DNA from: Candidatus Gorgyraea atricola
GTDB lineage: Bacteria; Omnitrophota; Gorgyraeia; Gorgyraeales; Gorgyraeaceae
DNA length: 64,000 bases
NCBI GenBank assembly: GCA_030765235.1
Contig: JAVCCW010000029.1
Coordinates: 76,939 to 140,938, forward strand
Direction of reading: 5' to 3'
The notes beneath the pieces were generated by a model. The model ran no database searches. It was not told where the DNA came from and worked only from the letters and a program-made list of their open reading frames with translations. The translations under genes and the position numbers were made by a program. Positions 7,645 through 55,305 of this stretch are shown piece by piece (position 1 is the stretch's first letter; each line of letters opens with the position of its first letter).

Positions 7645-8173
7645 TTTTTATCTCTTGTCCCTTGTCCCATGTCTCTTGTCCCTAACAAGCTGTGGCTACA
7701 CCACGAAAACCACCCTTCCGAACGATATAAAAACAATTCAGGTCGCTATATTCAAAAACAAGATCGATATAACAAAAGAGGTAAGCGCAAAGGATAAGTA
7801 TGAGGTCTACAGGCCAAATCTCGAAGTGGATCTCAGGGACGAGATCGTAAATAGAGTGTTTCTGGATGGACATTTAAAGGTGGCCTCAGGGAATGTCGCA
7901 AATGCTATTCTCTCAGGCGAGATCACGCAATACAGAAAAGACCCATTGAGATATCAAAATGAAGAAGTGCGTGAATACAGGATAAGCCTGGTATGTGATT
8001 TTAAATTAATAGATTCCAGGAATGGAGAAGTGTTGATAGAGGAAGATAGTATTACAGGAGATACGACTTATTTTACCACTGGCACGCTTCAGAAGAGCGA
8101 GACAGCTGCCTTAACCGATGCAATGCAGGATCTCGCTAGAAGAGTAGTTAATAGAGTAGTTGAGAACTGGTAA
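7628..8173 (+). CDS. lptE: LptE-like LPS-assembly lipoprotein
   Basis: Signal peptide plus the lipobox LTSCGY. Sits immediately upstream of holA, the conserved lptE-holA arrangement. The 5' end overlaps the bamD-like stop and is built from a CTTGTCCC tandem array. Confidence 0.5.
   Translation: MRLRSSFYLLSLVPCLLSLTSCGYTTKTTLPNDIKTIQVAIFKNKIDITKEVSAKDKYEVYRPNLEVDLRDEIVNRVFLDGHLKVASGNVANAILSGEITQYRKDPLRYQNEEVREYRISLVCDFKLIDSRNGEVLIEEDSITGDTTYFTTGTLQKSETAALTDAMQDLARRVVNRVVENW
7651..7683. repeat. Tandem 8-mer array (CTTGTCCC-like, x4, reverse complement of GGGACAAG). Encodes the hydrophobic core of the LptE-like signal peptide.
   Basis: TCTCTTGTCCCTTGTCCCATGTCTCTTGTCCC. Confidence 0.8.
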
Positions 8174-8179
8174 TAAAAA

Positions 8180-9139
8180 ATGCCCACCAAAATATTCCCC
8201 GCGTATCTTTTTCTTGGCGAAGAGGGTTTTTTAAAGCAAGAGGCGATCGAGAAACTGAAGTCGACTCTTTTGGATAAAAACACCCAGGATCTTAACTACA
8301 ATACATTTTACGCTAAGGACAAGAATTTTAACGTCAGTCAGATGCTTGACGATCTTGATACCATGCCGTTTTTATCAAAGAGGAGGCTGGTGATATTAAA
8401 GGAGGCTGATTCTGTAACCGTATCCGCAAAGACATCGATCCTTTCTTATCTGGAGAGTCCGAGGGAAAGCTCTGTTTTTGTTATTGAAAGCGATCTGCCT
8501 GCAATAAAGGGTGATTTTCTTTTAAAGGCCTCAAAGGCCGCGCACCTGATCTATCACAGGAAGCTGACAGACTCTAGCATCAATACATGGCTTGTTAAAA
8601 GAGCAGGCCTTGCCGGCAAAAAGATCTCCACAGAGGCCATTGACGCAATAAAAGAAAACCTGCCGAATGATCTCAGGGTGATCTCTTCCAATATGGATAA
8701 CATAATCCTCTATGTTGGCAAGAGGCCATTGATAAAAAAGCAGGATATTGAGAATATTGTAGGAGTGAGCCCTTCGCATACTGCCTTTGATCTTATAGAT
8801 GCTATAGGAGAGAAGGATGCTAAAAGAGCGCTGCGTATATTTTCTACTCTTAAGAGAGACAAGAAAAGGGAAACAGAGCTTTTAGGGCTTTTGGCATGGA
8901 ATGCGAGGATGCTTTTAAGGATAAAGGAGCTTTTCAGGATCAAGAATAATATGGAGATGCGTCAGGATCTTGACCTGAGCCCAAGGGTATTTGAGAGGAT
9001 CCTGCGTCACGCGTCTATGCTGAAGAAAAAAGAGATCCTCGCGCTGCTGGACGAGATACTCCGCTCAGACCTTGCTATAAAAACAGGCACTTCTCCTGGC
9101 GCTGTGATAGAGAGATTAATCGTAAGGATGTGTATCTAA
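8180..9139 (+). CDS. holA: DNA polymerase III delta subunit
   Basis: N-terminal ...PAYLFLGEEGFLKQEAIEKLK... is a typical HolA start. About 320 aa. Synteny with lptE. Confidence 0.75.
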   Translation: MPTKIFPAYLFLGEEGFLKQEAIEKLKSTLLDKNTQDLNYNTFYAKDKNFNVSQMLDDLDTMPFLSKRRLVILKEADSVTVSAKTSILSYLESPRESSVFVIESDLPAIKGDFLLKASKAAHLIYHRKLTDSSINTWLVKRAGLAGKKISTEAIDAIKENLPNDLRVISSNMDNIILYVGKRPLIKKQDIENIVGVSPSHTAFDLIDAIGEKDAKRALRIFSTLKRDKKRETELLGLLAWNARMLLRIKELFRIKNNMEMRQDLDLSPRVFERILRHASMLKKKEILALLDEILRSDLAIKTGTSPGAVIERLIVRMCI

Positions 9140-9209
9140 CTTTACTTGGCAAGGCTGGACCTCGGCTTTTTTTAAAAAAAGCCGAGGTCCAGCCTTGCCA
9201 AGTAAAGTT
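9139..9209. terminator. Long perfect hairpin (29-bp stem, A/T-tract loop) between convergent holA and rpsT. Bidirectional intrinsic terminator and member of a repeat family.
   Basis: AACTTTACTTGGCAAGGCTGGACCTCGGC-TTTTTTTTAAAAAAA-GCCGAGGTCCAGCCTTGCCAAGTAAAGTT. Confidence 0.75.
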
Positions 9210-9471
9210 AAGCGGTTTTTAGCTTTTTTGAGAGACGGGCAATTTTGCGCGAGGCAGTGTTCTTGTGGATAATGCCTTTTGAACTTGCCCTGTCGAGCGT
9301 TGAGATGAGGACATTGAGCTGTTTCTTTGCCTCATCCAGTTTTTTTGCAGACACAAGATCTATAAATTTCTTTGTCTCAGTCTTTAAAAGAGACTTTATA
9401 GACAGATTCCGCGCGGTCCTTCTTTTGGTTACCTTGATACTCTTGTAAGCAGCATGTAGTATTGGCATCAT
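9208..9471 (-). CDS. rpsT: 30S ribosomal protein S20
   Basis: An 87-aa basic protein reading MPILHAAYKSIKVTKRRTARNLSIKS... matches the S20 family. Convergent with holA and shares the bidirectional hairpin terminator. Confidence 0.85.
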   Translation of the reverse strand: MMPILHAAYKSIKVTKRRTARNLSIKSLLKTETKKFIDLVSAKKLDEAKKQLNVLISTLDRASSKGIIHKNTASRKIARLSKKLKTA

Positions 9472-9514
9472 TTCTCCTTTTTAGTGTAAGATAAGATAAC
9501 ATAATAGGACGCAT

Positions 9515-11038
9515 ATGTCAACGAAAAAGCATATACTTAAATCAGCCGGGATCATAGGGTTTGCTACTGTGGTGAGCCGCGTGCTGGGGTTTGCGCGCGA
9601 TATCTTGATCGCGCGATTCTTTGGCACCGGTAAATTTGCTCAAGCCTTTGTGGTGGCATTCCGCATACCAAATATGCTGAGGGATCTCATAGGCGAGGGA
9701 GCGACTAACGCGGCTGTAGTTCCGGTCTTGAGTGAGTATTCTGAGACAAAAAAGAAAGAGGAATTCTGGCATCTGGCCAATGTATTGCTGAACGTGGTCT
9801 TGATCGTGCTGACAGGTGTGACTTTGGCAGGTATTGTCTTTGCGCCAGTGATCGTGCGTCTTATAGCGCCTGGTTTTATAAGCGATCCTGAGAAGTTAAG
9901 GCTTACAGTGTATCTGACGCGTTTCATGTTTCCCTATGTATTACTCGTGGGACTCCTGGCTTACGGTATGGGCATACTTAATTCCTTGAAGCATTTCTCA
10001 GCGCCAGCGTTTGCGCCGGCGATATTGAACCTGACGATAATAATATGTGTGCTCGTGAGACAGGGAAGTGTTTCAGCGCTTGCAACAGGTGTTTTAATAG
10101 GCGGTGTTGTGCAGATGGCTGTGCAGATACCTGTTTTATTTGCCAAAGGATTCCGTTTTAATTTTAGGAGCGGCTTTCATCACCAGGCTGTAAGAAAGAT
10201 AGGCGCGCTTCTGGCTCCCAGGATACTCGGCTCGTGTGTATATCAGATAAATATTTTTGTCAATACAATGCTCGCGTCACTTTCGTCTATAGTAGGGCAG
10301 GGAGGCGTGGCAGCGCTTTATTATGCGAACAGGATCTTTCAGTTTCCGCTCGCAATATTTGGGATAGCTATTGCGCAGGCAGCATTGCCTACCATGTCCA
10401 GGGAGGCGCTTGAGCAGGGTCTTGAAAAGCTTAAAGATACACTTTCCTTTTCGCTCAGGGCAGTGAATTTTATAATGCTGCCTGCCTCTTTTGGCCTGAT
10501 AGTGCTTGCCAGGCCCATAACCAGTGTATTGTTTCAAAGAGGCATGTTTGGACAATATTCAACATCCATAACTGCGGGCGCGCTCGCGTTTTATTCAATA
10601 GGACTTTTTAGTTACGCGGGGATCAAGATACTGGTGTCGTGTTTTTATTCGCTGAAGGATACATTTACGCCTGTAAAGATCGCGAGTGTATCTTTGGTGT
10701 TAAATGTCGTGCTGGGAGTAATGCTTATGTTTTTTTTAAAGATAAGCGGCCTTGCGCTCGCCACTGCTATATCGGGGATATTTAATTTCTTCCTGCTGTT
10801 TTTTGCCTTAAGAAAAAAGATCGGCGCGTTTGATGATTCGAAGATAGTGACTTCATTTCTGAAGATGTTTGCATCGAGCGCAGTGATGGCAGGGTTGATA
10901 TATTTTAGCGCGTTCCGGATGGGGCTGAATCTTTTTATTGTCATATTAATAGGTATAGTGAGTTATATGTTAGCCGCGTTTGTATTTCGCGTGAAAGAGA
11001 CAAGGGAGTTTTTGAAATGGGCCTTAAGGAGAAATTAA
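9515..11038 (+). CDS. murJ: Lipid II flippase MurJ
   Basis: 507 aa, about 14 TM segments. N-terminal GFARDILIARFFGTGKFAQAFVVAFRIPNMLRDLIGEGA is diagnostic of MurJ/MviN. Confidence 0.85.
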   Translation: MSTKKHILKSAGIIGFATVVSRVLGFARDILIARFFGTGKFAQAFVVAFRIPNMLRDLIGEGATNAAVVPVLSEYSETKKKEEFWHLANVLLNVVLIVLTGVTLAGIVFAPVIVRLIAPGFISDPEKLRLTVYLTRFMFPYVLLVGLLAYGMGILNSLKHFSAPAFAPAILNLTIIICVLVRQGSVSALATGVLIGGVVQMAVQIPVLFAKGFRFNFRSGFHHQAVRKIGALLAPRILGSCVYQINIFVNTMLASLSSIVGQGGVAALYYANRIFQFPLAIFGIAIAQAALPTMSREALEQGLEKLKDTLSFSLRAVNFIMLPASFGLIVLARPITSVLFQRGMFGQYSTSITAGALAFYSIGLFSYAGIKILVSCFYSLKDTFTPVKIASVSLVLNVVLGVMLMFFLKISGLALATAISGIFNFFLLFFALRKKIGAFDDSKIVTSFLKMFASSAVMAGLIYFSAFRMGLNLFIVILIGIVSYMLAAFVFRVKETREFLKWALRRN

Positions 11039-12261: not shown

Positions 12262-12297
12262 CTTTACACTTTTGTGATACACAGAAAAGTGTAAAGT
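12261..12297. terminator. Hairpin ACTTTACACTTTTGTG...CACAGAAAAGTGTAAAGT after uvrC
   Basis: About 16-bp imperfect stem immediately after the stop codon. Confidence 0.55.
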
Positions 12298-12302
12298 AGT
12301 AA

Positions 12303-12328
12303 AGTAGGCCAGGTTTAAACCTGGCCTA
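12303..12328. repeat. 26-bp palindromic repeat, copy 3 (uvrC-prfB spacer), followed by CTACTGCTACTGCT
   Basis: Identical 26-mer. Preceded by the AACTTTACACTTTTGTG hairpin. Confidence 0.9.
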
Positions 12329-12365
12329 CTGCTACTGCTCGGGGTGGTTAGGTGATATGAAAGCG

Positions 12366-12395
12366 TTGACTTTGTTCGAGAAAAAGGTATATACT
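12366..12395 (+). promoter_or_regulatory. Sigma70-type promoter for prfB-secA
   Basis: TTGACT, 18 nt, TATACT. Confidence 0.55.
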
Positions 12396-12425
12396 GTTGT
12401 GAAAAGAAAATATCAGACATAGAAT

Positions 12426-13523
<1,098 letters not shown>

Positions 13524-13524
13524 T

Positions 13525-16277: not shown

Positions 16278-16412
16278 AGTTGTGAGTTATGGGGGTGTGT
16301 TGTGAGTTATGTGTCGAGTTATGAGTTGTGGGTTGTGAGTAAAAAAACACACAACTCATCCCCACAACCCGACCCACAACCCATAACCCATCCTCACTCT
16401 CACAACAACTAG
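16278..16412. repeat. About 130-bp imperfect palindrome (TGTGAGTTATG... / ...CATAACCCATCCTCAC, centre GAGTAAAAAAACACACAACTC) immediately after secA
   Basis: The left arm is GT-rich and the right arm is its AC-rich complement. Confidence 0.8.
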
Positions 16413-16416
16413 TTAT

Positions 16417-17811
16417 ATGCTACTCACCATCATCTCTGCCATACTACTAATACTCGCCTTCCCAAACTTTAATCAGAGTTATTTTGTTTTTATAGGTTTT
16501 GTCCCGCTCCTTTTTGCAATACAGAAAAAGTCGGCAAAAAAGGCATTTTGGAATTCGTACCTGTGCGGGTTTTTATTTTACCTCGGTGTCTTATACTGGC
16601 TTTACCATGTGACAGGTGTTGGACTTATTATTCTTTGTCTCTATCTTGCGCTGTATTTCGGGATCTTTGGATTTTTATTCAATCGCGCCACCTATTATAC
16701 TTCAGGTTTCAGCCTTTTATTTATACCGCTAATATGGATTTTTCTTGAATATGTACAGTCTCATCTTTTTTCAGGTTTTGGCTGGGCCTTGCTGGGCTAT
16801 TCGCAATACAAGAAGCTGCATCTAATCCAGATCGCGGATTTTGCAGGAGTCTATGGTGTTTCATTTCTTGTGATGATGGTGAATGTCGCAGTCTATAAGT
16901 TTTTCAAGAGATCAGCAAAACATCTTGTGATATCTGCTTTGGTTCTGGCAATGGTATTTTGGTATGGGAAAATGAGGGAGAATGAGGGGGAATGGGGGGA
17001 TGGTCTTAAAGTATCAGTTATACAGGGAAACATTCCGCAGGAGATTAAATGGGATCCTTTTGCGAGTGACGAGATAATGAAGTCATATTTTAATCTAACC
17101 AGGCTCGCAGCATTTGACGAACCTGATTTAATAATCTGGCCTGAGACGTCTTTCCCTGGATTTTTTATAAGCGATGAGGAAAAAACCAAACAGGTCCTTG
17201 ATCTGGCAAGAAAGATACAGATCCCGCTTTTAATAGGAGCAAATACTGTAGATGGTTTGGATATTTTAAATAGCGCAGTGCTTATCTCAAAAAAAGGCGA
17301 AGTGATAGACAAATACGATAAGCTCCACCTTGTGCCTTTTGGCGAATTCGTGCCATTTGGAGACAAAATCCCTTTTTTGCATAGACTGGTGCTCGGCGAA
17401 CTGGGTCATTTTACAGCAGGAGAAGAGTACAGGATATTTAAGATCGAATACCCTTCTCCGCAGAAAATCTTTGATTTTAGTACAGGCGAACAGCAAGCCG
17501 CAAACATCGAGCATAGATTTGCTACGCTGATCTGCTTCGAGGACATCTTTCCTGGCATTGCCAAGCGGTTTGTCCAGAAAGGCGCGCAGTTTCTAGTGGT
17601 AATCACGAACGATGCCTGGTATGGCAAAAGCGGCGCACCTTATCAACACACAGCCTGCTCAGTCTTCCGCGCAATCGAGAACCGCGTCCCAATCGTACGC
17701 TGCGCCAACACAGGCTTTTCCTGCTTCATAGACCCCTACGGCCGCATCCACGACCCCATAGAAGATATATTTACCTCTAAACACAAAACCTCCACTGTTA
17801 AACTGAGATAA
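16417..17811 (+). CDS. lnt: Apolipoprotein N-acyltransferase
   Basis: N-terminal multi-TM region plus a CN-hydrolase domain (LICFEDIFP, WPETSFPG). Confidence 0.8.
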   Translation: MLLTIISAILLILAFPNFNQSYFVFIGFVPLLFAIQKKSAKKAFWNSYLCGFLFYLGVLYWLYHVTGVGLIILCLYLALYFGIFGFLFNRATYYTSGFSLLFIPLIWIFLEYVQSHLFSGFGWALLGYSQYKKLHLIQIADFAGVYGVSFLVMMVNVAVYKFFKRSAKHLVISALVLAMVFWYGKMRENEGEWGDGLKVSVIQGNIPQEIKWDPFASDEIMKSYFNLTRLAAFDEPDLIIWPETSFPGFFISDEEKTKQVLDLARKIQIPLLIGANTVDGLDILNSAVLISKKGEVIDKYDKLHLVPFGEFVPFGDKIPFLHRLVLGELGHFTAGEEYRIFKIEYPSPQKIFDFSTGEQQAANIEHRFATLICFEDIFPGIAKRFVQKGAQFLVVITNDAWYGKSGAPYQHTACSVFRAIENRVPIVRCANTGFSCFIDPYGRIHDPIEDIFTSKHKTSTVKLR

Positions 17812-17845: not shown

Positions 17846-17871
17846 GTAGGCCAGGTTTAAACCTGGCCTAC
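17846..17871. repeat. 26-bp palindromic repeat, copy 4 (after lnt), flanked by two CACAAAAGTGTAAAGT motifs
   Basis: Identical 26-mer. Confidence 0.9.
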
Positions 17872-22369: not shown

Positions 22370-23038
22370 ATGTTGCGAGCTGAAAAGATTCAAAAAATAT
22401 ATAGAAACGGGAAGAAGGGCCTGCGGGTTTTGCAGGATGTTGATCTGGAGATCAAGAAGGGCGAGGCCTTGGCAATAGTAGGGCCGTCAGGCGCTGGCAA
22501 GTCAACGCTCTTGCATATATTAGGAGGCATAGACAGGCCCAGCTCAGGCAAGGTGGTTTTTGAAAATCAGGATTTATATGCATTGCCAGACAATAAGAGA
22601 GCTGAGATCAGAAATAAGAAAATAGGATTCGTATTTCAGTTTTATCACTTGTTGCCGGAATTTACGGCGCTTGAGAATGTGTTGATGCCGACCTTGCTGA
22701 CGGGCCAACGGGCCAACGGGCCAACGGGCAACGATAAGACAAAGAAGTTATTGCAAGAGTTGGGGCTTGGTGAGAGAATGCGTCACAGGCCGAGTGAGCT
22801 TTCTGGGGGCGAACAGCAGCGCGTAGCAATTGGCCGGGCGCTCATAAATGATCCAGATATACTTCTCTGTGACGAGCCCACAGGAAACCTGGATTCAAAG
22901 ATGGGCGAAGAGATACTTGATATTTTACTTGGACTTAATAAAAAGAATCGCACGACAATTGTCATTGTCACACATGATAAAGAAATCGCAAAAAGGGCAG
23001 ATAGAATAATTAAAATTCAAGACGGGAGGATATTATGA
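22370..23038 (+). CDS. lolD: Lipoprotein-releasing system ATP-binding protein LolD. Carries a (CGGGCCAA)x4 insertion in frame.
   Basis: Walker A GPSGAGKST, LSGGEQQRVAIGRAL and Walker B ILLCDEPTGNLD. The 32-bp 8-mer array at 22701..22732 encodes GQRANGPTGN. Confidence 0.85.
   Translation: MLRAEKIQKIYRNGKKGLRVLQDVDLEIKKGEALAIVGPSGAGKSTLLHILGGIDRPSSGKVVFENQDLYALPDNKRAEIRNKKIGFVFQFYHLLPEFTALENVLMPTLLTGQRANGPTGNDKTKKLLQELGLGERMRHRPSELSGGEQQRVAIGRALINDPDILLCDEPTGNLDSKMGEEILDILLGLNKKNRTTIVIVTHDKEIAKRADRIIKIQDGRIL
22701..22732. repeat. Tandem 8-mer array (CGGGCCAA)x3 plus a degenerate fourth unit, in-frame in lolD
   Basis: CGGGCCAACGGGCCAACGGGCCAACGGGCAAC. Confidence 0.85.
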
Positions 23039-23918: not shown

Positions 23919-24431
23919 ATGTTATGTGATACATGCAAAAAGTCTCAGGCAACAGTGCATTTGACAGAGATCATAGACGATCAGATGACAGAGCTTCATC
24001 TGTGCGAGGAATGCGCGCAGAAAAAAGGCGCGCAGATGGAGAGTCACTTTGGCCTGGCAGATCTTTTAGCCGGCCTTGCAGACTTAGGTAGCGGCCAGTT
24101 TACCAAGGCAAAGAGTGAGACGCAGGTCAAGTGCCCGCGATGCGGCCTTACCTATGAGGATTTTAAAAAAGTAGGAAGATTAGGCTGCGGTGAATGTTAT
24201 TCCGCGTTCAAAGAGGCGCTTATGCCTCTTCTAAAAAGGATACACGGCTCTACGCAGCATTATGGCAAGTCTCCGAAAAAGATGACAAAGACAACAAAGT
24301 CAGTAAAGAGCAAAAATGAATTACAGGAACTAAAAGATAAGCTGCAAAAGGCAATACAGGTGGAGGAGTTTGAGGAAGCAGTTAAGGTGCGAGATAAAAT
24401 CCGTGATATAGAGAAACGCAGGAAGAAATGA
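23919..24431 (+). CDS. mcsA: Protein-arginine kinase activator McsA (zinc-finger plus UVR-domain protein)
   Basis: Two CxxC pairs at the N-terminus (CDTCKK...CEECAQ, CPRCG...CGECY). C-terminal UVR motif (EEFEEAVKVRDKI). Immediately upstream of mcsB-clpC. Confidence 0.75.
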   Translation: MLCDTCKKSQATVHLTEIIDDQMTELHLCEECAQKKGAQMESHFGLADLLAGLADLGSGQFTKAKSETQVKCPRCGLTYEDFKKVGRLGCGECYSAFKEALMPLLKRIHGSTQHYGKSPKKMTKTTKSVKSKNELQELKDKLQKAIQVEEFEEAVKVRDKIRDIEKRRKK

Positions 24432-24536
24432 CCAATGCCCAATTACCAATGACCAATAAATTCCCAATTACCCAATTTCCAATTGGTCATTGGACATTGG
24501 TCATTTATTGGTAATTGGGAATTGGTAATTGGAAAT
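24431..24536. repeat. About 106-bp imperfect palindrome built from CCAAT/ATTGG units (centre CCAATTGG), between mcsA and mcsB
   Basis: ACCAATGCCCAATTACCAATGACCAATAAATTCCCAATTACCCAATTTCCAATTGG... mirrored. Confidence 0.8.
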
Positions 24537-24554
24537 TTTAAGGGGGTTTTACAC

Positions 24555-32458: not shown

Positions 32459-33127
32459 ATGAATGTCGCAGCCATAGTTCCCGCCGCAGGTAAAGGTAGG
32501 CGCATAAAATCAAAGATAGCCAAGCCACATATAAAGCTTTGCGGCAAACCAATACTTGCGCATACGCTAGTCAGGCTTTCAAAGAATAAACACATAAAAG
32601 AGATCATTGTCAGCGTCGATAAAAAACATATAGCAAGGGTCAAGAGATTCAAGATCAAGAATGTAAAGGTAGTAGCTGGAGGAAGGGAAAGAAAGCACTC
32701 CGTGCTTAATGCATTGAAAAAGGTGTCTAGCAACATAGATTATGTATTGATCCACGATGGCGTGAGACCCTTTCTTACTGATAAATTAATAAACGCCTCT
32801 TTAAAGGCAGCTCGCTCTTTTGGCGCAAGTGTTGTCGCGGTACCTGTAAAACCTACCTTGAAATGCGCTGGGAGGAGAGGCTGTGTAGCATACACGCCTG
32901 ATAGGACAAAGTTTTGGGAGGCGCAGACACCTCAGGTATTCAAAAGAGATTTAATAGAGAAGGCATACAGGGCCATTGGCAAGAAAAACATAACAGATGA
33001 TTCCATGCTGGTCGAGCTCCTGGGCATAAAACCAAAACTAGTCATGGGCTCGTACAGAAATATAAAGATCACGACAGAAGAAGATTTGAAACTGGCAAAG
33101 ATGTTGTGTAGTTTACCTCCTCTGTAG
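32459..33127 (+). CDS. ispD: 2-C-methyl-D-erythritol 4-phosphate cytidylyltransferase
   Basis: MNVAAIVPAAGKGRR is a typical IspD start. The stop codon TAG lies inside the 26-bp palindrome at 33124..33149. Confidence 0.85.
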   Translation: MNVAAIVPAAGKGRRIKSKIAKPHIKLCGKPILAHTLVRLSKNKHIKEIIVSVDKKHIARVKRFKIKNVKVVAGGRERKHSVLNALKKVSSNIDYVLIHDGVRPFLTDKLINASLKAARSFGASVVAVPVKPTLKCAGRRGCVAYTPDRTKFWEAQTPQVFKRDLIEKAYRAIGKKNITDDSMLVELLGIKPKLVMGSYRNIKITTEEDLKLAKMLCSLPPL

Positions 33128-33157
33128 GCCAGGTTTAAACCTGGCCTACAGAGGAGG
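33116..33157. repeat. 26-bp palindromic repeat, copy 5, with an extended 42-bp palindrome CCTCCTCTG...CAGAGGAGG. Carries the ispD stop codon and the ispF RBS.
   Basis: Core at 33124..33149. The arms extend the palindrome to 42 bp. Confidence 0.9.
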
Positions 33158-33649: not shown

Positions 33650-35011
33650 ATGAAGATATATAATACGCTTAAGAGAAAAAAGGAAAGTTTCGAGCCCAAG
33701 AGAAAAATCGGTATGTACGTATGCGGCCCAACGGTTTACGACGCGCCTCATATCGGTCACGCGAGAAGCGCTTATGCATTTGATGTGATACGCCGGTATT
33801 TTGAATATAAAAAACACAAGGTTACTTTTGTAAGAAATGTCACTGATGTCGACGATAAGATAATCAATAAAGCGAGAGATGAATTTAAGAAAGAGGATTT
33901 AAATAGCGCGGTAAAAAAGGTCTCAGATAAATACCTCAAGGTCTATCATAAATACATGGATGATCTGGGTATCAAGCGGCCTGATAAAGAGCCAAAGGCC
34001 ACAGAGTATATAGGTAAGATGAAGGATTTTATCGCTATATTGATAAAAAAAGGCGTAGCTTATGAATCAGATGGCGATGTGTATTTTAATATTAAAAAGG
34101 CAAAGAAATATGGCAAATTGTCAAATCAGAGCATTGAGAACCTGGAGGTTGGGGCGCGAGTTTCTCCAAAAGAACACAAAAAGGACCCACTTGATTTTGC
34201 TCTTTGGAAAAAGGCCAAGGATGGTGAGCCTTATTGGGAGAGTCCATGGGGAAAAGGCAGACCTGGCTGGCATATAGAATGCTCGGTGATGAGCTCGGAT
34301 ATTTTAGGAGACGAGTTTGACATACACGGCGGAGGCATAGATCTTATCTTTCCGCACCACGAGAACGAGATTGCGCAATCAGAGGGCGCAGGAAAAAAAT
34401 TCGCGCGTTTTTGGATACACAACGGACTTTTGACTATCAATAAAGAAAAGATGGCCAAGTCCCTGGGAAATTTTATTACAATAGAAGAGATCCTGAGTAA
34501 ATATTCAGCAGACGTACTTAAGATATTATTCTTACAGACGCATTATTCTCATCCAGTGGATTTTTCCTGGGAGAGGATGGAAGAGGCGAAGAGGGCGATG
34601 GAGAGGTTCAGTATCGTGTTGGGCAGCTCCGATAGCAACAAGCGACAAGCAACAAGGGACAAGGGGGTTGAAGAATTTCGCAAGAGGTTTGAGGAGGCTA
34701 TGGATGATGATTTTAATACTCCAAGTGCACTTGCGGCGCTGTTCGATTTAGTTACGTATGTTAATAAATTAGGGACAAGGGACAAGGGACAAGGGACAAG
34801 GGAGTTGTTGGATTTGGGTAGGGTGTTCGGGTTGTTTGAGAAAAGAAAAGTCCAGAAACTTAAGGTAGAGGTAAAAAAACTCATAGAGGAAAGAAATAAA
34901 GCCAGGAAGGAAAAGGATTTCAAGGCAGCGGATAAAATAAGAGAAAAATTAGATAAAATGGGCATTATACTCGAGGATCAAAAAGACGGCACCACCTGGC
35001 GAACGACCTAA
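33650..35011 (+). CDS. cysS: Cysteinyl-tRNA synthetase. An in-frame (GGGACAAG)x4 array lies in the linker region.
   Basis: HIGH (PHIGHARS) and KMSKS (KMAKSLGN) motifs. Zinc-binding Cys residues. Array at 34772..34803, with a degenerate copy at 34624..34656. Confidence 0.9.
   Translation: MKIYNTLKRKKESFEPKRKIGMYVCGPTVYDAPHIGHARSAYAFDVIRRYFEYKKHKVTFVRNVTDVDDKIINKARDEFKKEDLNSAVKKVSDKYLKVYHKYMDDLGIKRPDKEPKATEYIGKMKDFIAILIKKGVAYESDGDVYFNIKKAKKYGKLSNQSIENLEVGARVSPKEHKKDPLDFALWKKAKDGEPYWESPWGKGRPGWHIECSVMSSDILGDEFDIHGGGIDLIFPHHENEIAQSEGAGKKFARFWIHNGLLTINKEKMAKSLGNFITIEEILSKYSADVLKILFLQTHYSHPVDFSWERMEEAKRAMERFSIVLGSSDSNKRQATRDKGVEEFRKRFEEAMDDDFNTPSALAALFDLVTYVNKLGTRDKGQGTRELLDLGRVFGLFEKRKVQKLKVEVKKLIEERNKARKEKDFKAADKIREKLDKMGIILEDQKDGTTWRTT
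34772..34803. repeat. Tandem 8-mer array (GGGACAAG)x4 in-frame in cysS. A degenerate array lies upstream at 34624..34656.
   Basis: GGGACAAGGGACAAGGGACAAGGGACAAGGGA. Confidence 0.85.
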
Positions 35012-35077
35012 CTTTACTTGGCAAGGCTGGACCTCGGCTTTTTTAAAAAAGCCGAGGTCCAGCCTTGCCAAGTAAAG
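35009..35077. terminator. Second copy of the identical 29-bp-stem hairpin, between cysS and tmk (same strand)
   Basis: Same stem sequence as 9139..9209. The loop is TTTTTTAAAAAA. Confidence 0.7.
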
Positions 35078-35093
35078 TTAGGTTAAGGGGATC

Positions 35094-35714
35094 ATGAATA
35101 AGCGGGGATTGTTCATCACATTCGAAGGGCCGGAAGGGAGTGGTAAGAGTACACATTCTAAGCTCTTGTGTGATTTTTTGAGGGAAAAAGGTCATAAGGT
35201 TTTATATACCAGGGAGCCGGGCGGCACGCTTATCAGTGAAAAGATACGCAAGGTATTGCTGGACCCCAAGAATAAAGGCATGGATGTAGCATGTGAGATG
35301 CTTTTATATATTGCCGCGAGGGCGCAGATCATAAAGGAAAAGATCTTACCCGCGTTAAAGAGAGGCGAGATCGTAGTCTGTGATAGATTTACAGATGCTA
35401 CGCTTGTTTATCAGGGATATGCAGGAGGAATTGATTTAAAGACCATAAAGGACATAAATACGATTGCTACAAAGGGTATATCTCCTGAAGTTACTTTTTT
35501 ATTGGACATAGAGGCGAAAAAGGGACTTTTACGTTCAGGAAAAAATAAAGACAGGATGGAGAGAAAATCACTCCTCTTTCATAAAAAGGTCAGGCAGGGA
35601 TATCTGATGATCGCCCGCAAGGAACCGCGCAGGGTAAGGATACTTTCAGCGATAGGGGAGATTTCAGAAACGCAGGAGAAAATTAGAAAAATAGTTTTAA
35701 AGTTAATAGGTTAG
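35094..35714 (+). CDS. tmk: Thymidylate kinase
   Basis: FITFEGPEGSGKST P-loop, DRF motif. 206 aa. Confidence 0.85.
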   Translation: MNKRGLFITFEGPEGSGKSTHSKLLCDFLREKGHKVLYTREPGGTLISEKIRKVLLDPKNKGMDVACEMLLYIAARAQIIKEKILPALKRGEIVVCDRFTDATLVYQGYAGGIDLKTIKDINTIATKGISPEVTFLLDIEAKKGLLRSGKNKDRMERKSLLFHKKVRQGYLMIARKEPRRVRILSAIGEISETQEKIRKIVLKLIG

Positions 35715-35842
35715 TTGTGAGGGTGAGGATGAGTTATGGGTTGTGGGTCGAGTTGTGAGGTGTAGGTAGTGAGTAAAAACACACAACCCATCCTCACAAC
35801 CCGACACATAACTCACAACACACCCACACAACACACAACAAA
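35715..35842. repeat. Second copy of the TGTGAGT-type 130-bp imperfect palindrome, immediately after tmk
   Basis: Shares the GAGTAAAAACACACAAC centre and the CCCATCCTCACAACCCGAC motif with the 16278 copy. Confidence 0.8.
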
Positions 35843-36794: not shown

Positions 36795-37580
36795 GTGAAG
36801 GAAGTGATTCAAGTCAGATTAAGAGAGGCAGGTATTACCTTATATTATGAACCCAATGATATGAAGCCGAAGGTGGGGGACTATGTGATCGTCGGAGTTG
36901 AAAGGGGTCAGGATTATGCTCAGGTGATAAGCGTGCCAGAGAGCATTTCAGAGGACAAGCTTAAAAAACCATTGAAGAAAATTGTGCGCATAGCTACAAA
37001 GGATGATATGGAGCGCATAAATGAAAACAAGAAGCGGATCAAGTACGCGTCCCAGACATGCACCAGAAAGATCCAGGAACGCAAGCTTGATATGAAGCTG
37101 ATCAATGTGGAATATTCCTTTGACAGGACAAAGCTTATTTTTTATTTTACCTCTGAAGGCAGGGTGGATTTCAGGGAGCTTGTAAAGGACCTGGCCCATA
37201 TATTTAAGGTAAGGATAGAGTTGAGGCAGGTAGGCGTCAGGGATGAGGCAAGGATGCTGGGCGGGTTCGGGCATTGCGGCCGGCCTCTGTGCTGCTCTAG
37301 TTTTTTAAAGGGTTTTGAGCCAGTGACGATAAGGATGGCAAAGGAACAGAATCTTCCGCTCAATCCTTCAAAGATCTCAGGCTGTTGCGGCAGGCTCATG
37401 TGTTGCCTGGGATATGAATATCAGAATTATAAGAAGTATCTAAAAGGACTCCCAAAAGAAGGCGAAAAGATAAAGACAAAGCATGGCAAGGGCAGGGTAG
37501 TAAGTGTAAACGCCTTAAGGCGCAAGGTAACTGTTGAACTGGAGGAAGGAAAGCATATAGAGTTAGATTACAATAAATGA
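36795..37580 (+). CDS. ricT: PSP1-domain protein (RicT/YaaT family)
   Basis: Conserved PSP1 C-terminal region with Cys-rich GHCGRPLCCSSFL...CCGRLMCCL. Firmicute-like tmk-holB-ricT synteny. Confidence 0.75.
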   Translation: MKEVIQVRLREAGITLYYEPNDMKPKVGDYVIVGVERGQDYAQVISVPESISEDKLKKPLKKIVRIATKDDMERINENKKRIKYASQTCTRKIQERKLDMKLINVEYSFDRTKLIFYFTSEGRVDFRELVKDLAHIFKVRIELRQVGVRDEARMLGGFGHCGRPLCCSSFLKGFEPVTIRMAKEQNLPLNPSKISGCCGRLMCCLGYEYQNYKKYLKGLPKEGEKIKTKHGKGRVVSVNALRRKVTVELEEGKHIELDYNK

Positions 37581-37702
37581 AATCCCAAATCCAAATACTA
37601 CCAAATCCCAAATAAATCCCAATTTCAAAATCCCAAAATTGGGATTTGGGATTTTGGATTTATTTGGTAGTATTGGTATTATTGGTAGTATTGGGATTTA
37701 TT
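37581..37702. repeat. About 120-bp imperfect palindrome of CCCAAAT/ATTTGGG units (centre CCCAAAATTGGG) between ricT and metG. Shares an identical 29-mer with the greA-upstream element.
   Basis: GATTTATTTGGTAGTATTGGTATTATTGG occurs at 37657..37685 and again at 47326..47354. Confidence 0.8.
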
Positions 37703-41121: not shown

Positions 41122-42173
41122 AGTTCATCAGGCGTGAAAAGATATATTTCCTAATACTCTTTTTTATATTAGCTGTAAATTTGATGCAGGTAAAGACCGT
41201 AAAAAAAGAGACGCCTAGTGAAAAGTCTTTGTCTTCGATGAACTTTGAGGAACTGGGTGTTACAGAAGAAAAGGTTAAGGACTTTTTCGAGTCTGATAAG
41301 TTCAGCGCAAAATTCTTTAAGTATCTTGTATACTTTGGATTTTTTATATTTGCCCTGTCTTTGGTGCTGAATCTTGTTTTTATTTTTAGGGGAAAGCCCC
41401 GTCTCTGTAGGCCGGGTTTAAACCCGGCCTACAGAGACGGGGTGGAGATAGGGAGAAAGGGTGCGGGAGCACCATGGGAGATACTGGACATATTCAGGGC
41501 AGTCCTTATTATAATATTTGCAGGTTATGTGCTGGCGATCATCGAGGCGTATGTCGTGAAGTCCTTTCATCTTGAATTGACTATGAATCTACGCATGATA
41601 ATCAATACCTTTTTTATAGATATTGTTGCAGCGATGGTGATCTTGTATTTTGTCATGGTCAAATACAAAAAGAACATACAGGAGTTGGGACTAAAGACCT
41701 CTTCTTTTTTAAGAAATATTTTATCTGGCATAACTGCCTATATTTTTATGTTGCCGGTTTTGCTGGTAATATTGATCTTCTCTATATGGATCTTGAATGC
41801 GTTGGGATATACGCCGCCGCCTCAGCCTGTATTTGAGGTGTTCATGGAAGAGAAGAAGAGCCTGGTGCTTTTATTTCTGACAGTCTTTGTATCAGTGCTT
41901 GGGCCTATAGTAGAAGAGGTCTTTTTTAGAGGGTTTATGTACAGTGCTGTAAGAAAGCATACAGGTGTATTGGCCGCGGCATTTTTAAGTGGCGCTATTT
42001 TTAGTATGCTGCATACAAACATCGTTGGATTTTTACCCATAATGGCGCTGGGCGTGCTTTTGGCATATCTCTACGAGACTACAGGTTCGCTTGTGGCGTC
42101 GATAAGTGTTCATATATTGCATAATTCCATTATCGTGGCTTTTGTATTTTTTCTAAAAGAATTAATAGGTTAG
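41115..42173 (+). CDS. CPBP-family intramembrane metalloprotease (Abi/CAAX protease). Carries an in-frame 26-bp palindrome insertion.
   Basis: Conserved EE(V)xFRG (GPIVEEVFFRGFMY) and HxxxN/H motifs in TM helices. The palindrome at 41407..41432 encodes CRPGLNPAYRDG. Confidence 0.6.
   Translation: MLEFIRREKIYFLILFFILAVNLMQVKTVKKETPSEKSLSSMNFEELGVTEEKVKDFFESDKFSAKFFKYLVYFGFFIFALSLVLNLVFIFRGKPRLCRPGLNPAYRDGVEIGRKGAGAPWEILDIFRAVLIIIFAGYVLAIIEAYVVKSFHLELTMNLRMIINTFFIDIVAAMVILYFVMVKYKKNIQELGLKTSSFLRNILSGITAYIFMLPVLLVILIFSIWILNALGYTPPPQPVFEVFMEEKKSLVLLFLTVFVSVLGPIVEEVFFRGFMYSAVRKHTGVLAAAFLSGAIFSMLHTNIVGFLPIMALGVLLAYLYETTGSLVASISVHILHNSIIVAFVFFLKELIG
41397..41442. repeat. 26-bp palindromic repeat, variant copy 6 (GCCGGGTTTAAACCCGGC core), with extended CCCCGTCTCTG arms. 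In-frame inside the CPBP protease.
   Basis: Core at 41407..41432. The variant keeps the palindrome through a compensatory change. Confidence 0.85.
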
Positions 42174-47283: not shown

Positions 47284-47372
47284 AAAATCCCAAATCCCAA
47301 AACATGTTTGGGATTTTGAAATTGGGATTTATTTGGTAGTATTGGTATTATTGGAATTTGGGATTTATCGCG
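47284..47372. repeat. CCCAAAT/ATTTGGG hairpin element between alr and greA (same family as the metG-upstream element)
   Basis: AAATCCCAAATCCCAAAACATGTTTGGGATTTTGAAATTGGGATTT plus the shared 29-mer. Confidence 0.8.
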
Positions 47373-47395
47373 CAATATTAAGGAGGAAAGCCATT

Positions 47396-49119: not shown

Positions 49120-49256
49120 TGTTTGGGAGCGTCCGCCGCGTCCGAAGGTAGCCTTTTATGGGATAAGTGGGGCGTGGGGTGTTCTGTGAGTGGGAGGATC
49201 CACGCCGGGCGGAGGGGCCCACGAACAGAATACCCCGCGCCCCACAATATGCGATA
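49120..49256. ncRNA. GC-rich, highly structured non-coding segment (candidate small RNA or structured repeat) upstream of the PPIase gene
   Basis: 14-bp stem GTGGGGCGTGGGGT (49167..49180) pairs with ACCCCGCGCCCCAC (49232..49245). Nested TTCTGT/ACAGAA and GTGGG/CCCAC pairings. No long ORF. Abuts the MITE-like fragment. Confidence 0.25.
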
Positions 49257-49258
49257 AA

Positions 49259-49319
49259 GAGATTGCTTCGCTTCGCCCCGCCCTTTCTTCAGAAAGGGCG
49301 GGGCTTCGCTCGCAATGAC
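49259..49319. repeat. Partial or derivative copy of the GTCATTGCGAGCGAAGC-terminus element (intergenic)
   Basis: GAGATTGCTTCGCTTCGCCCCGCCCTTTCTTCAGAAAGGGCGGGGCTTCGCTCGCAATGAC. Its right end is a perfect reverse complement of the left terminus of the comEC copy. Confidence 0.6.
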
Positions 49320-49419
49320 AGTATGGTTGTAAAAAATATATTGTATTTTTCCATACTGGGTGGCATAATATATAGCTAATGATAATAGGTCCGGAAGGGC
49401 CATAACAAAAGGAGAGATA

Positions 49420-50382: not shown

Positions 50383-50420
50383 TATAAAGGTATAAAAGTT
50401 TAAAGGTTAGGAGTTGGGTT

Positions 50421-52073: not shown

Positions 52074-52110
52074 AGTAGACAAAACAGACAGTGTCTGTTT
52101 TGTCTACTTT
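52072..52110. terminator. Perfect 18-bp-stem hairpin between ilvD and ilvB (terminator or attenuator-like)
   Basis: AAAGTAGACAAAACAGACA-GTG-TCTGTTTTGTCTACTTT. Confidence 0.6.
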
Positions 52111-52134
52111 AGCTATTTTAGCAAGGGATATACT

Positions 52135-53805
52135 ATGAAAATGACAGGCGCAAGGATATTTATTGAATCGCTTAAGAAGCAGGGTGTCGAGGTTATGTTC
52201 GGCTATCCTGGCGGGGTAGTGCTGCCTATTTTTGACGCACTCTATGACAGCGATATCAAATTTATATTAACAAGACACGAGCAGGGCGCAGCGCATGCAG
52301 CAGATGGCTATGCACGCGCTACTGGAAAAGTCGGAGTCTGTCTCGCCACCTCTGGTCCTGGCGCGACAAATCTTGTCACAGGCCTTGCAACAGCTAACAT
52401 GGATTCTGTGCCAGTAGTAGCCTTTACAGGCCAGGTCAAGACCTCTCTCATAGGAAACGACGCGTTTCAGGAAGTAGATGTCAGCGGCATAACGCGACCT
52501 ATCTCAAAACACAACTACCTTGTAAAGGATGTCAAGAATCTGACGACTGTCATAAAGAACGCGTTTCACATAGCATCAACTGGCAGGCCAGGCGTAGTGG
52601 TCGTGGATCTACCAGTCGACGTTCAAATACAGGAGACAGATTTTCAATATCCTGAGAAGGCAGAGATAAGAGGCTATAAGCCGACGTGCAAAGGCCATAT
52701 CGGGCAGATAAAAAAGGCCTGTAAGCTGATCGCGAATAGCAAAAAACCTCTCCTATATGTTGGCGGCGGGGTGATCATCTCAGGCGCAGCAGATAATCTG
52801 GCAGAGTTTGTCAAAAAAACAAGCATACCTGTTACAATGACACTCATGGGTCTGGGCGCGTTTCCCGGCACTCACAAACTTTCTCTTGGCATGCTCGGTA
52901 TGCACGGCACTGCGTACGCGAATCACGCTGTACAGGACTCTGACCTTTTAATAGCAGTGGGCGCCCGGTTCGACGACAGGGTCACTGGCAAGATCGATGA
53001 ATTCGCGCCGCACGCAAAAATAATACACATCGACATAGACCCGTGCGCAATAAGTAAGAATGTAAAGGTGGACATACCTATTGTGGGTGACGCGAATAGT
53101 GTGCTGGCAGATTTCAATAAATATATAAAGGAACCAGATATCTCCAAATGGCACAAACAGATCGAGTCATGGAAGGAAAAATTTCCGCTAAGCTATAAGA
53201 ATGATTCAAAGCTCAGGCCGCAATATGTCGTGGAAGAGATCTATAATATTACAAAAGGCAAGGCTATTATTGCTACTGAAGTCGGGCAGAATCAGATGTG
53301 GGCCGCGCAATTTTATAAATATGAGAGACCCAGGCAGTTTATTTCAAGTGGTGGCCTTGGCACAATGGGCTATGGCTTCCCAGCCGCAATAGGCGCGCAG
53401 ATGGGCTGTCCCAAGAAGACGGTCTTTGACATCGCTGGCGACGGCAGTATCCAGATGAATATACAGGAGCTTACAACAGCAGTAGCGAATAAGCTGCCTG
53501 TTAAGATCGCTATATTGAATAATGGTTGTCTGGGTATGGTCAGACAGTGGCAGGAACTTTTTTACAAGAGAAGATATTCACATACTATATTGGAATCATG
53601 CCCTGATTTTGTGAAACTCGCGGAGGCGTATGGCGCAGCTGGCATGAGGATCACCAAAAAGTCAGAGGTCAAAAAGGCAATAAAAAAGGCATTGGACATA
53701 AAGGGCCCTGTTCTCATGGATTTTCGTGTTGAGCCAGAGGAGAATGTATTTCCAATGGTCCCAGCAGGACAACCTATTAACAAGATGATAGGAGCGCTCG
53801 CGTAA
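52135..53805 (+). CDS. ilvB: Acetolactate synthase large subunit
   Basis: ThDP-binding motif [15 protein letters not shown]-binding region. 556 aa. Confidence 0.9.
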
Positions 53806-53806
53806 T

Positions 53807-54280
53807 ATGAAAAAAACCATTTCTGTTTTAGTTGAAAATCACTTTGGTGTTTTAACACATGTATCTGGACTTTTTAGCGCGCGTGGATTTAATATCAATA
53901 GCCTTGCTGTGGGAGAGACAGAGGACCCGTCTATCTCGAGGATGACCATTGTTGTGGACGGGGATGAAAAGACACTGGAGCAGGTCAAGAAGCAGCTCAA
54001 TAGGCTCATAGATACTATAAAGATAATCGATCTTACAGAAGAGGATTTTATAGACAGGGAACTACTGCTTGTGAAGGTCAAGATGGATTCCAAGAATCGC
54101 TCTGAGATCTTGCAGATAGCAAACACATTTCAGGCAAAGATAGATGACGCAAAGAAAGACACGGCTGTTATAGAGGTAACAGGTGATGAGAATAAGATAA
54201 AGTCTTTCATAGAAATGATCAGGCCGTTCGGCATCGTTGAAGTAGTGCGCACCGGCCGTATCGCAATGGGGAGGAAATAA
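53807..54280 (+). CDS. ilvN: Acetolactate synthase small (regulatory) subunit
   Basis: ACT domain start ISVLVENHFGVL. 157 aa. Immediately after ilvB. Confidence 0.85.
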   Translation: MKKTISVLVENHFGVLTHVSGLFSARGFNINSLAVGETEDPSISRMTIVVDGDEKTLEQVKKQLNRLIDTIKIIDLTEEDFIDRELLLVKVKMDSKNRSEILQIANTFQAKIDDAKKDTAVIEVTGDENKIKSFIEMIRPFGIVEVVRTGRIAMGRK

Positions 54281-54283
54281 TCA

Positions 54284-55273
54284 ATGGCAAAGATTTATTA
54301 TGACAAGGATGCTGACTTAAATGTTTTAAAGGGAAAGAAGATCGCGATCATTGGCTATGGCATTCAGGGTCGTGGTCAGGCATTGAATCTGCGTGACAGC
54401 GGGCTTGATGTGATCGTAAGCGAATTAGAAGGAACAGAAAACTACAAGACCGCGCAGGCTGATGGTTTTACGCCAGTTGCCGCGATCGAGGCAGCCAAAG
54501 AGGGCGACATCATACAGATACTTACTCAGGACCATGTGCAGGCAAAGGTCTACAAAGAGTCTATAAGACCAAATCTTAAAAAGGGAAAGGCCATGGTTTT
54601 TTCTCATGGCTTTAACATACATTTTAAGCAGATCAAGCCGCCAAAAAAGGTAGACGTATTTATGGTGGCGCCCAAAGGTCCTGGCGCGCTCGTAAGGCAG
54701 ATGTATGAAGAGGGAAAAGGTGTTCCGTGTCTAGTGGCTGTATTCCAGGATGCAAGCGGTGACGCGCTTAAACAGGGTCTTGCATATGCAAAAGGCATAG
54801 GCGGCACAAGGGCAGGCGTTATCGAGACTACATTTGAGGAAGAGACAGAGACAGATCTTTTTGGCGAGCAGGTTGTGCTGTGCGGCGGTACCACTGAGCT
54901 TATCAAGGCAGGCTTTGATACATTGATAGAAGCTGGTTACCAGCCAGAGATAGCATATTTTGAATGCCTGCATGAATTGAAATTGATCACAGACCTAATT
55001 TACGCGACAGGCATTCAGGGCATGCGCAAACGAGTTTCAGATACAGCAGAATACGGGGATGTTACGCGAGGCAAGCGCATTATAACTGAGAGAACGCGCA
55101 AGGAAATGAAAAAGATCCTGAAACAGGTGCAGTCGGGCAGATTTGCCAGAGAGTGGATCAAGGAAAATGAAAACGGCAGGCCTGAATTCACTAAATTAAG
55201 AAAAGCAGACGACACCCATCCTGTTGAGGTAATTGGCAAGAAACTCCGCGGGATGATGGACTGGATTAAATAG
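54284..55273 (+). CDS. ilvC: Ketol-acid reductoisomerase
   Basis: NADP Rossmann motif [21 protein letters not shown]. 329-aa class I KARI. Confidence 0.9.
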
Positions 55274-55305
55274 GGACAAGTGACAAGAGACAAGGGACAA
55301 GGGTA
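55273..55305. repeat. Tandem 8-mer array (GACAAGNG-like, x4), filling the whole ilvC-leuA spacer
   Basis: GGACAAGTGACAAGAGACAAGGGACAAGGGTAG. Confidence 0.8.

Follow-up and report, generated by a model that had tools for sequence, protein, structure and literature searches.

The tandem arrays of short units in cysS, lolD, lptE and the ilvC-leuA spacer of a 64 kb stretch of DNA (hereafter the window) from the metagenome-assembled genome (MAG) of 'Candidatus Gorgyraea atricola', phylum Omnitrophota, are probably members of a clade-wide population of dispersed tandem heptanucleotides in the Gorgyraea branch, made by replication slippage and filtered by selection. They are the same kind of object as the short tandemly repeated repetitive (STRR) sequences of cyanobacteria and the over-represented heptameric simple sequence repeats (SSRs) of other bacteria: a 7-nt unit repeated head to tail, enrichment of period 7, recurrence of a unit at dispersed loci and a mainly intergenic location were all found. 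The persistence of in-frame arrays at matching sites of essential genes is unusual.

A first-pass annotation had described the four loci as one related phenomenon, each carrying tandem copies of an 8-bp unit over about 32 bp. All four arrays are present where it placed them, far beyond chance (Table 1). The gene assignments also stand, by NCBIfam for cysS, lolD, ilvC and leuA and by Pfam PF04390 together with the source annotation for LptE, and the peptides quoted for the three translated arrays are correct. The unit required revision. Period 7 was obtained for the cysS, lptE and ilvC-leuA arrays by Tandem Repeats Finder (TRF) and also by scanning the sequence directly for runs with s[i]=s[i+p]; the 8-mer GGGACAAG had been obtained by reading GGGACAA together with the first G of the following unit. 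An 8-mer occurs only in lolD, the sole such case in the flagged set, and its closing unit is itself one 7-mer, GGGCAAC. The length of about 32 bp holds for the high-identity arrays (29-37 nt). In imperfect arrays the TRF score cut-off of 30 contributes to it, since an array of ~85% identity is reported only from ~32 nt at that setting. A degenerate copy does precede the perfect cysS array in the same gene, at a distance of 137 bp rather than ~120 bp; this AGCGACA-type array occupies a second variable loop of cysS. The lptE array is the reverse complement of GGGACAA, forming an inverted repeat 91% complementary to the cysS array, and encodes the hydrophobic core of the LptE lipoprotein signal peptide. 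The ilvC-leuA array constitutes the whole spacer, overlapping the ilvC stop codon (55271-55273) and ending 3 nt before the leuA ATG (55307). Within this spacer, ACAAGGGA resembles the ACA-GGA core and might be a CsrA-type binding site.

Period 7 stands out in the window and in its relatives. In a shuffle test (at least 18/21 matches per array, 20 dinucleotide shuffles, periods 4 to 15), the window contained 6 period-7 arrays against 0.0 in the shuffles, and 0-1 arrays for every other period. The clade sample (~178 kb) contained 18.5 period-7 arrays per 100 kb (33 arrays), with 0-9 arrays for each other period. In other phyla (1.25 Mb of ClpC-centred loci), where the prevailing periods are 6, 9 and 12, the density fell to 2.3 per 100 kb, and in six more distant Omnitrophota-like loci it was 1.7 per 100 kb. 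The ClpC-centred loci came from a contig scan whose listed matches were mostly from other phyla, and they therefore served as controls, not as relatives. Perfect arrays of at least three units occurred at 39 per Mb in the clade versus 4.8 per Mb elsewhere. The first-pass annotation had allowed that the arrays might be unremarkable low-complexity segments absent from the rest of the genome. They are not absent elsewhere: the window holds ~12 period-7 arrays, and many more are found in the relatives. Five of the 12 are coding (comEC at 5464, lptE, and three calls at the two cysS sites) and seven are intergenic, within the ~6.6% of the sequence that is non-coding; the flagged arrays belong mostly to the coding minority. 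The CysS, LolD and LptE proteins encoded in the window show 100% identity to proteins from a 404,273-bp contig of the MAG. All called genes of the window lie on the + strand, and the GC skew is between +0.09 and +0.22 in every 4-kb bin. No Rfam family matched anywhere in the window. An assembly artefact was rejected as an explanation: the arrays are shorter than a read, and separate assemblies from NCBI, JGI and ENA show them at matching sites.

Units are also shared between loci. GGGACAA occurs at four window loci (34771, 34645, 55272 and, as the reverse complement, 7654), as does AAATCCC/GGGATTT (37580, 37639, 47285 and 47308). In a related assembly, GCA_042571405.1, GGCTSAA occurs at five loci and CTATNCG at three. 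By our own calculation there are ~1,170 heptamer classes when rotation and strand are allowed for, so sharing on such a scale is not due to chance. The view that the four flagged arrays represent one related phenomenon is supported.

The lolD site allows a comparison across lineages, designated here by the L numbers of the fetched loci. The array follows directly after the codons for LEN..MP.L, and its 5' boundary was identical in 6/6 lineages for which the DNA was read. In each of the six the array is ~30-34 nt long, and the unit is different in each (Table 1). The encoded peptides are unrelated, indicating that the conserved feature is the DNA repeat architecture and not the protein. The same periodicity is visible at the protein level. 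In 89 unique LolD loops from 108 Omnitrophota homologues, amino-acid identity at offset 7 was 0.166, versus 0.04-0.076 at other offsets; identities at offset 7 numbered 179, whereas 500 shuffles averaged 76.5 and never exceeded 101. The loops are most often 25 or 18 residues long, a difference of 7 aa, which equals 21 nt or three units. As controls, LolD genes were collected by a metagenome scan with a degenerate pattern of the lolD flank; the matches listed were mainly gut and other LolD genes with few new Omnitrophota arrays, and among them the period-7 signal was absent from the site in ~35 distinct LolD genes of other bacteria. The exceptions were a few contigs with many heptamer arrays of their own, for example L106 and L164.

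The arrays are translated and kept in frame, which might be taken to mean that the proteins need a repeated peptide module and that selection acts at the protein level. The unrelated same-site peptides of different lineages argue against this, as does the fact that one DNA unit serves both in an untranslated spacer and, read from the other strand, in a different gene; close relatives, moreover, function without the cysS arrays. We regard protein-level selection of this kind as the least probable of the explanations considered, with next to no weight.

The other coding sites document the gain and loss of arrays. Both cysS arrays are missing from L001 (a JGI metagenome) and L002 (GCA_042571405.1), which share 83-86% nucleotide identity with the window, and they are therefore recent and lineage-specific. 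Relative to these two loci the window has 15 additional nucleotides at each site. Fifteen is divisible by 3 but by neither 7 nor 8, so the arrays did not arise by a clean insertion of whole units. An alignment of 16 Omnitrophota CysS proteins identified both sites as length-variable loops. The more distant L213 carries (GGGTGAA)x4 at the first cysS site, the loop of the window's degenerate array, and many CysS homologues have 7-aa periodic loop peptides such as RLKAEGSRLKA and RVKGKGLRVKG. Among ~120 LptE homologues, signal peptides with 7-aa periodic hydrophobic cores are abundant (LLVTGYWLLVT, LLLYCSIVLLLYC and SYRLSVTGYRSSVTGHRLPVTGYRLPITCY, for example), and the lptE DNA of relatives contains (CTATCCG)x4.6 in L211 and a 96-nt (GGTTAYC)x13.7 array in L212. 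The lptE array of the window is common to a relative of 92% identity and looks decayed in relatives of 74-81% identity (LSLVSC, LAPCLLSL), suggesting that an array can with time become ordinary coding sequence. In comEC of L211, a GGCTSWA array lies at the same relative position as the window's comEC array; L211 also has a perfect (CCCGAAT)x5.3 array inside leuS. In every lineage examined the arrays are in frame. Much longer insertions, the longest ~43 aa, were seen at the same sites in the Omnitrophota LolD homologues P0184, P0160, P0188 and P0204 (loop) and LptE homologues P0260, P0300 and P0313 (signal peptide), some with partial 7-aa periodicity at the protein level.

The first-pass annotation had argued that in-frame arrays imply strong selection or a templated insertion, and we agree on the need for selection. 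The unit length is not a multiple of 3 and each copy shifts the frame, so in-frame arrays in essential genes require selection on total length. We propose that replication slippage favouring a 7-nt register would create and homogenise the arrays. The organisms would generate tandem heptamers at a high rate, with the survivors mostly intergenic. In essential genes only frame-keeping changes would survive, either as three-unit blocks (21 nt, 7 aa) or as compensated events, and an array would persist only where all three frames of its unit yield an acceptable peptide. Purine-rich GGGACAA yields Gly, Thr, Arg, Asp, Lys and Gln, which would suit a surface loop, and its complement TTGTCCC yields Leu, Ser, Val, Pro and Cys, which would suit the core of a signal peptide; the strand would thus account for the site. 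In an inherited array, mutation together with in-frame expansion and contraction would turn over the unit. Such turnover fits the L003 array, in which two variants of the unit form a 2+2 block, and the loop lengths, which fall into classes 7 aa apart. Old arrays would then decay by point mutation into ordinary coding sequence. The recurring 'hotspots' would accordingly reflect vertical inheritance and a selection filter, not targeting.

A frame-shifting 7-bp unit is also what would be expected of phase-variable contingency loci, in which slippage by one unit toggles a gene or alters promoter spacing, and heptanucleotide SSRs are reported to drive phase variation in Haemophilus. The hosts here, on the other hand, are single-copy essential housekeeping genes (cysS, lolD and lptE), and none of the sites, comEC and the ilvC-leuA spacer included, belongs to surface or virulence genes or their promoters. 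The arrays lie in loops in the middle of genes, all examined lineages are in frame, and contigs from different samples, though few, show the same copy numbers. Phase variation thus seems very unlikely.

Several points weigh against our proposal. Slippage by one unit would frameshift an essential gene, so that the birth and homogenisation of an array within cysS or lolD are hard to explain. Purely local slippage does not predict one unit at several unlinked loci; to explain it, ectopic exchange, a common source or selection acting on the sequence would be required. The slipped-strand variation that the first-pass annotation suggested looking for did not appear: in the handful of near-identical contigs from different samples that could be compared (L087 versus L088; L003, L004 and L005), a tiny sample, no copy-number differences were seen. 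The copy number of perfect arrays is non-monotonic in a way that simple slippage does not predict, although the numbers are small: the clade has 11 perfect runs of 2.x copies, one of 3.x, five of 4.x, one of 5.x and none of 6.x, versus 26, six, two, one and one, respectively, elsewhere (2.07 Mb). The perfect clade arrays cluster at 4.1-4.7 units, again with small n. Finally, 5/6 lolD lineages keep at least four GGG tracts while the loop bases change, which looks like a structural constraint. The mode at 4.x copies in the TRF output for the clade (23 of 51 period-7 rows) was rejected as stand-alone evidence, being partly a score-threshold effect that the controls reproduce as the same bump.

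Some of these points would be met by a dedicated mechanism that writes ~32-nt arrays from the current heptamer of the genome, either by reiteration through a specialised polymerase or reverse transcriptase or by ectopic conversion; a templated insertion of fixed length had been offered in the first-pass annotation. Units are reused at unlinked loci within a genome while the preferred unit differs between genomes, high-identity arrays measure 29-37 nt whatever the unit, the cysS arrays have the dominant unit of the window where close relatives have none, and the hairpin arms of L087 are ~32-nt modules with distinct units. We found, however, no candidate enzyme, template or flank signature. The net gain of 15 nt in cysS was accompanied by replacement of ancestral bases and was not a clean insertion, the 32-nt mode of imperfect arrays is the TRF threshold effect, and array lengths reach 96 nt. 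At the lolD site, the fixed 5' boundary and the related units of related lineages fit inheritance. Slippage combined with a frame filter explains the same data, and we assign the writing mechanism a low probability. A broader formulation seems slightly less improbable: in Gorgyraeia-type Omnitrophota, and perhaps in relatives of the Planctomycetes-Verrucomicrobia-Chlamydiae (PVC) group, an active process would install ~32-nt arrays of the current heptamer at permissive sites, those within essential genes included, either from a template or by ectopic conversion between arrays, and/or nucleotide-level selection, for a G-quadruplex or a protein-binding platform, would override the protein sequence. 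Readings of this type retain a modest probability because local slippage does not account for the start and homogenisation of arrays in essential genes, the sharing of units or the clustering of well-preserved arrays at four to five units.

The G-rich arrays could instead be selected G-quadruplex elements of the DNA or mRNA that modulate transcription, translation speed or mRNA stability, with the GGG tracts maintained on the sense strand and the loop bases, and hence the peptide, free to drift. Both (GGGACAA)4GGG and (GGGCCAAC)3GGG fit the canonical G3N4-5 pattern. Motifs of this kind number four in the window versus 0.5 in shuffles, and GGG N4-5 in at least four copies is what the 5/6 lolD lineages keep. 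In ViennaRNA gquad predictions, a quadruplex is the minimum free energy (MFE) structure of the cysS array (-13.7 vs -2.5 kcal/mol) and of the lolD arrays of L087, L003, L089 and L090, the five spanning -13.7 to -18 kcal/mol. G3 or C3 is present in most perfect arrays of at least four copies, and the GGGNATC repeats studied by Rehm et al. show a preference for four units and form quadruplexes in vitro, although no function was established for them (PMC4692102). The motif is far from general, however. At least four tracts of at least three G are found at cysS 34771 and lolD 22702 and are lacking in the ilvC-leuA, lptE, comEC and most intergenic arrays; the ilvC-leuA and lptE arrays have three intact tracts each, and no quadruplex is predicted for the former. 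For the lolD array of the window itself, the predicted MFE structure is a hairpin. At the lolD site GGC units replace GGG in L006 and L164, and L106 has CGCTCGT. About half of the 4.x-copy arrays have neither G3 nor C3 (for example GGCTCAA, CTATCCG, GGTGAAC, AGCTTTC and AATGACC), so quadruplex formation cannot be the general explanation. We consider it unlikely that the arrays are selected as quadruplex elements, although this is the best placed of the alternatives. On the slippage account, the ability of G-rich units (GGG + 4-5 nt, at least four copies) to form quadruplexes would be incidental and not what the arrays are for, although it may favour arrays of four to five units and may matter for a subset of them. 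In ordinary RNA folding the direct arrays show no structure (z ~0); structure appears only when quadruplexes are allowed for.

Table 1. Positions and composition of the arrays and related elements (window coordinates unless a locus is named)
Feature	Position	Strand	Units and product	Source or remark
cysS array (cysS, 33650-35011)	34771-34803	+	(AGGGACA)x4.7 = (GGGACAA)x4.7, perfect; translated in frame as GTRDKGQGTRE, within a loop of variable length	TRF and period scan
Second cysS array, degenerate	34634-34665	+	AGCAACA, AGCGACA, AGCAACA, AGGGACA, AGGG; TRF interval 34634-34663	TRF
lolD array (lolD, 22370-23038)	22700-22733	+	(GGGCCAAC)x3 + GGGCAAC; TGQRANGPTGN	Period scan
lptE array	7651-7685	+	(TTGTCCC)-type, 82% matches; LLSLVPCLLSL	TRF: (CTTGTCC)x4.3 at 7654-7683
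ilvC-leuA spacer array	55272-55304	+	(GGGACAA)x4.6, 88% matches; TRF interval 55272-55303	TRF
comEC-like open reading frame (ORF) array	5464-5493	+	(GGTGAAC)2 (GGTTTAC)(GGTTAAC), in frame	TRF and period scan
lolD site, window			(GGGCCAAC)x3 + GGGCAAC; GQRANGPTGN	
lolD site, L087			(GGGACAA)x4 + GGG; GQGTRDKGQG	
lolD site, L003			(GGGTGTA)2 (GGGTGAA)2 GGG; GVGCRVKGEG	Unit GGGTGWA
lolD site, L006			(GGCTCAA)3 (GACTCAA); QGSRLKTQD	
lolD site, L089			(GGGTTAC)x4; GYGLRVTGYE	
lolD site, L090			(GGGACGA)x4; TRDEGRGTRDE	
mcsA-mcsB spacer, filled	24427-24537	.	AATGACC, AATTACC, AATTCCC, then GGTCATT, GGTAATT, GGGAATT	
Spacer between PSP1-like gene and metG	37575-37702	.	AAATCCC, then GGGATTT and TTGGTAGTA, inverted	
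Second copy of the AAATCCC element	47285-47354	.	AAATCCC / GGGATTT / TTGGTAGTA	91% identity over 47 nt to the 37639 element
Inverted G-rich / C-rich blocks	16279-16406	.	~7-nt substructure (GAGTTAT / CACAACC)	Partner 35714-35840
26-nt palindrome	5199-5224, 6614-6639, 12304-12329, 17846-17871, 33124-33149, 41407-41432, 56893-56918		GTAGGCCAGGTTTAAACCTGGCCTAC	
Control arrays	L013 6849-6989; L018 16475-16577; L036 7295-7324; L041 6476-6550			

The intergenic arrays are mostly adjacent inverted blocks. Two of the elements have strong predicted RNA hairpins, in which each heptamer gives ~5 paired and 2 variable bases. The hairpin of the mcsA-mcsB spacer reaches -44 kcal/mol (z = -4.2), and that upstream of metG reaches -47.8 kcal/mol (z = -5.5) and includes a terminator-like stem with a T-rich tail at 37624-37658. 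The second AAATCCC element has a weak predicted fold (z = -1.4). The intergenic hairpin arrays are probably terminators or RNA-stabilising elements. The STRR families of heterocystous cyanobacteria such as Calothrix PCC 7601 have specific unit sequences, and the unit TTGGTCA/ATTGGTC within the mcsA-mcsB spacer (24482-24505) resembles STRR2. The spacer is absent in L006; other hairpin elements occupy the spacer in L003 (a heptamer hairpin) and L087, and short hairpins occupy it in L089 and L090. One orthologous spacer is thus occupied by interchangeable hairpin elements. In both AAATCCC copies, tandem arrays of the 9-mer TTGGTAGTA adjoin the GGGATTT blocks (37664-37694 and 47333-47354). The element of inverted G-rich and C-rich blocks and its partner both lie between genes and form inverted repeats of each other with 89-91% matches.

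Other repeated elements were encountered in the window. A 26-nt perfect palindrome, GTAGGCCAGGTTTAAACCTGGCCTAC, is present in seven copies, mostly intergenic, two of which carry compensatory changes that keep the stem. It was sought as a link to the arrays and was found in 0/213 fetched loci, close relatives included; it therefore looks like a genome-specific element resembling the repetitive extragenic palindromic (REP) type. A 78-nt perfect palindrome (TAACTTTACTTGGCAAGGCTGGACCTCGGCTTTTTT/AAAAAA...) begins at the TAA stop of the upstream gene at 9137-9210 and 35006-35083, with 98% identity between the copies, and also fills the mcsA-mcsB spacer of L087 (L087 4944-5020). The lnt ORF (16417-17811) contains a period-10 G-rich array, GGGAGAATGA x3.3 at 16966-16999, that forms a canonical sense-strand G-quadruplex motif.

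Heptamer arrays accompany a further element in L006 (GCA_042571405.1, JBHPHU010000019.1). There a gene for an S23p-like (PF05635) 23S-rRNA-intervening-sequence protein (9561-9996) lies between lolE and lolD, with heptamer arrays in inverted orientation on its two sides, (ATAGCGN)x3.6 and (CTATNCG)x4.4. In the window the corresponding position is taken by a hairpin spacer of just 40 nt. Tandem heptamers also precede the S23p ORF of the Coxiella intervening sequence (PMC4990558). Among the control loci, some from Verrucomicrobiota and Planctomycetota contain heptamer arrays of ~4.6 copies as inverted pairs. In L013, a perfect AAACTCG x4.6 array and TTTCGAA form a hairpin of -47 kcal/mol, and the unit of L036, AATGACC, is also present in the window. 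The heptamer-array hairpins of L013, L018, L036 and L041 suggest that the phenomenon may extend across the PVC group.

Why heptamer units in particular are over-represented in the tandem repeats of bacteria is a minor question still to be answered, as are the origin of such arrays and whether they have any role. Because the arrays described here lie inside conserved single-copy genes whose flanks can be aligned, their birth, unit turnover, in-frame length change and decay can be traced at LolD, CysS, LptE and ComEC, which intergenic repeats do not permit. Their main value is as a traceable natural experiment on the dynamics of heptamer repeats. They also illustrate that simple-sequence DNA supplies new protein segments, such as signal-peptide cores and surface loops, in essential genes. 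In practice, array segments can mislead alignments, length comparisons of orthologues and the annotation of G-quadruplexes and repeats in Omnitrophota MAGs.

A full-text search of the accessible Omnitrophota papers found no description of such repeats, which is not proof that they are undescribed. In other bacteria several systems are comparable. Over-represented heptameric SSRs in many bacteria, and three heptanucleotide families in Calothrix, are mentioned by way of references 33 and 39 of PMC4692102. Like the cyanobacterial STRRs, the arrays consist of tandem 7-nt units of a few families at many dispersed, mostly intergenic loci, with no established function. They differ from STRR1-3 in that the host belongs to the Omnitrophota and not the Cyanobacteria, in that the dominant units are GGGACAA, CCAATNN and AAATCCC, and in that several lie within housekeeping genes without breaking the reading frame and are retained at orthologous positions from lineage to lineage. 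The TAACTGA repeats of marine Beggiatoaceae, cyanobacteria and Bacteroidetes (MacGregor 2015, PMC4679880) occur in 2-6 copies. They often precede a start codon directly, and in occasional cases they are translated in frame at the ends of proteins, mostly hypothetical ones. The array of the ilvC-leuA spacer and one in L089 (9977-10000) similarly lie directly upstream of a start codon, and the in-frame cases occupy tolerant positions. In contrast to the single TAACTGA unit found across phyla, many lineage-specific units are present here, and the coding arrays lie in internal loops of conserved enzymes. The long hairpins immediately after stop codons, one with a T-rich tail, recall REP palindromes, bacterial interspersed mosaic elements and intrinsic terminators; unlike the REP and mosaic elements, their arms are strings of 7-nt units, each contributing 5 paired bases and 2 variable ones, and not one conserved palindrome.

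A further comparison can be made with the GGGNATC / GGGGA(C/T)T repeats that Rehm et al. (2015, PMC4692102) described in Xanthomonas and Nostoc. These occur as inverted pairs, keep their intergenic positions in related species while varying in length and sequence, and are under-represented in ORFs on the coding strand. The polymerase-footprint idea for period 7 stems from that paper. The arrays described here share with them units of GGG + 4 nt, a number of about four units, inverted pairs capable of forming stem-loops, and housekeeping host genes. They differ in that quadruplex formation is here a prediction and in that the units (GGGACAA, GGGCCAAC, GGGTGWA, GGGTTAC and GGGACGA) depart from the GGGNATC/GGGGAYT consensus, about half of the arrays lacking a G-tract altogether. 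They differ as well in their placement, since the cysS and lolD arrays lie on the coding strand within essential ORFs.

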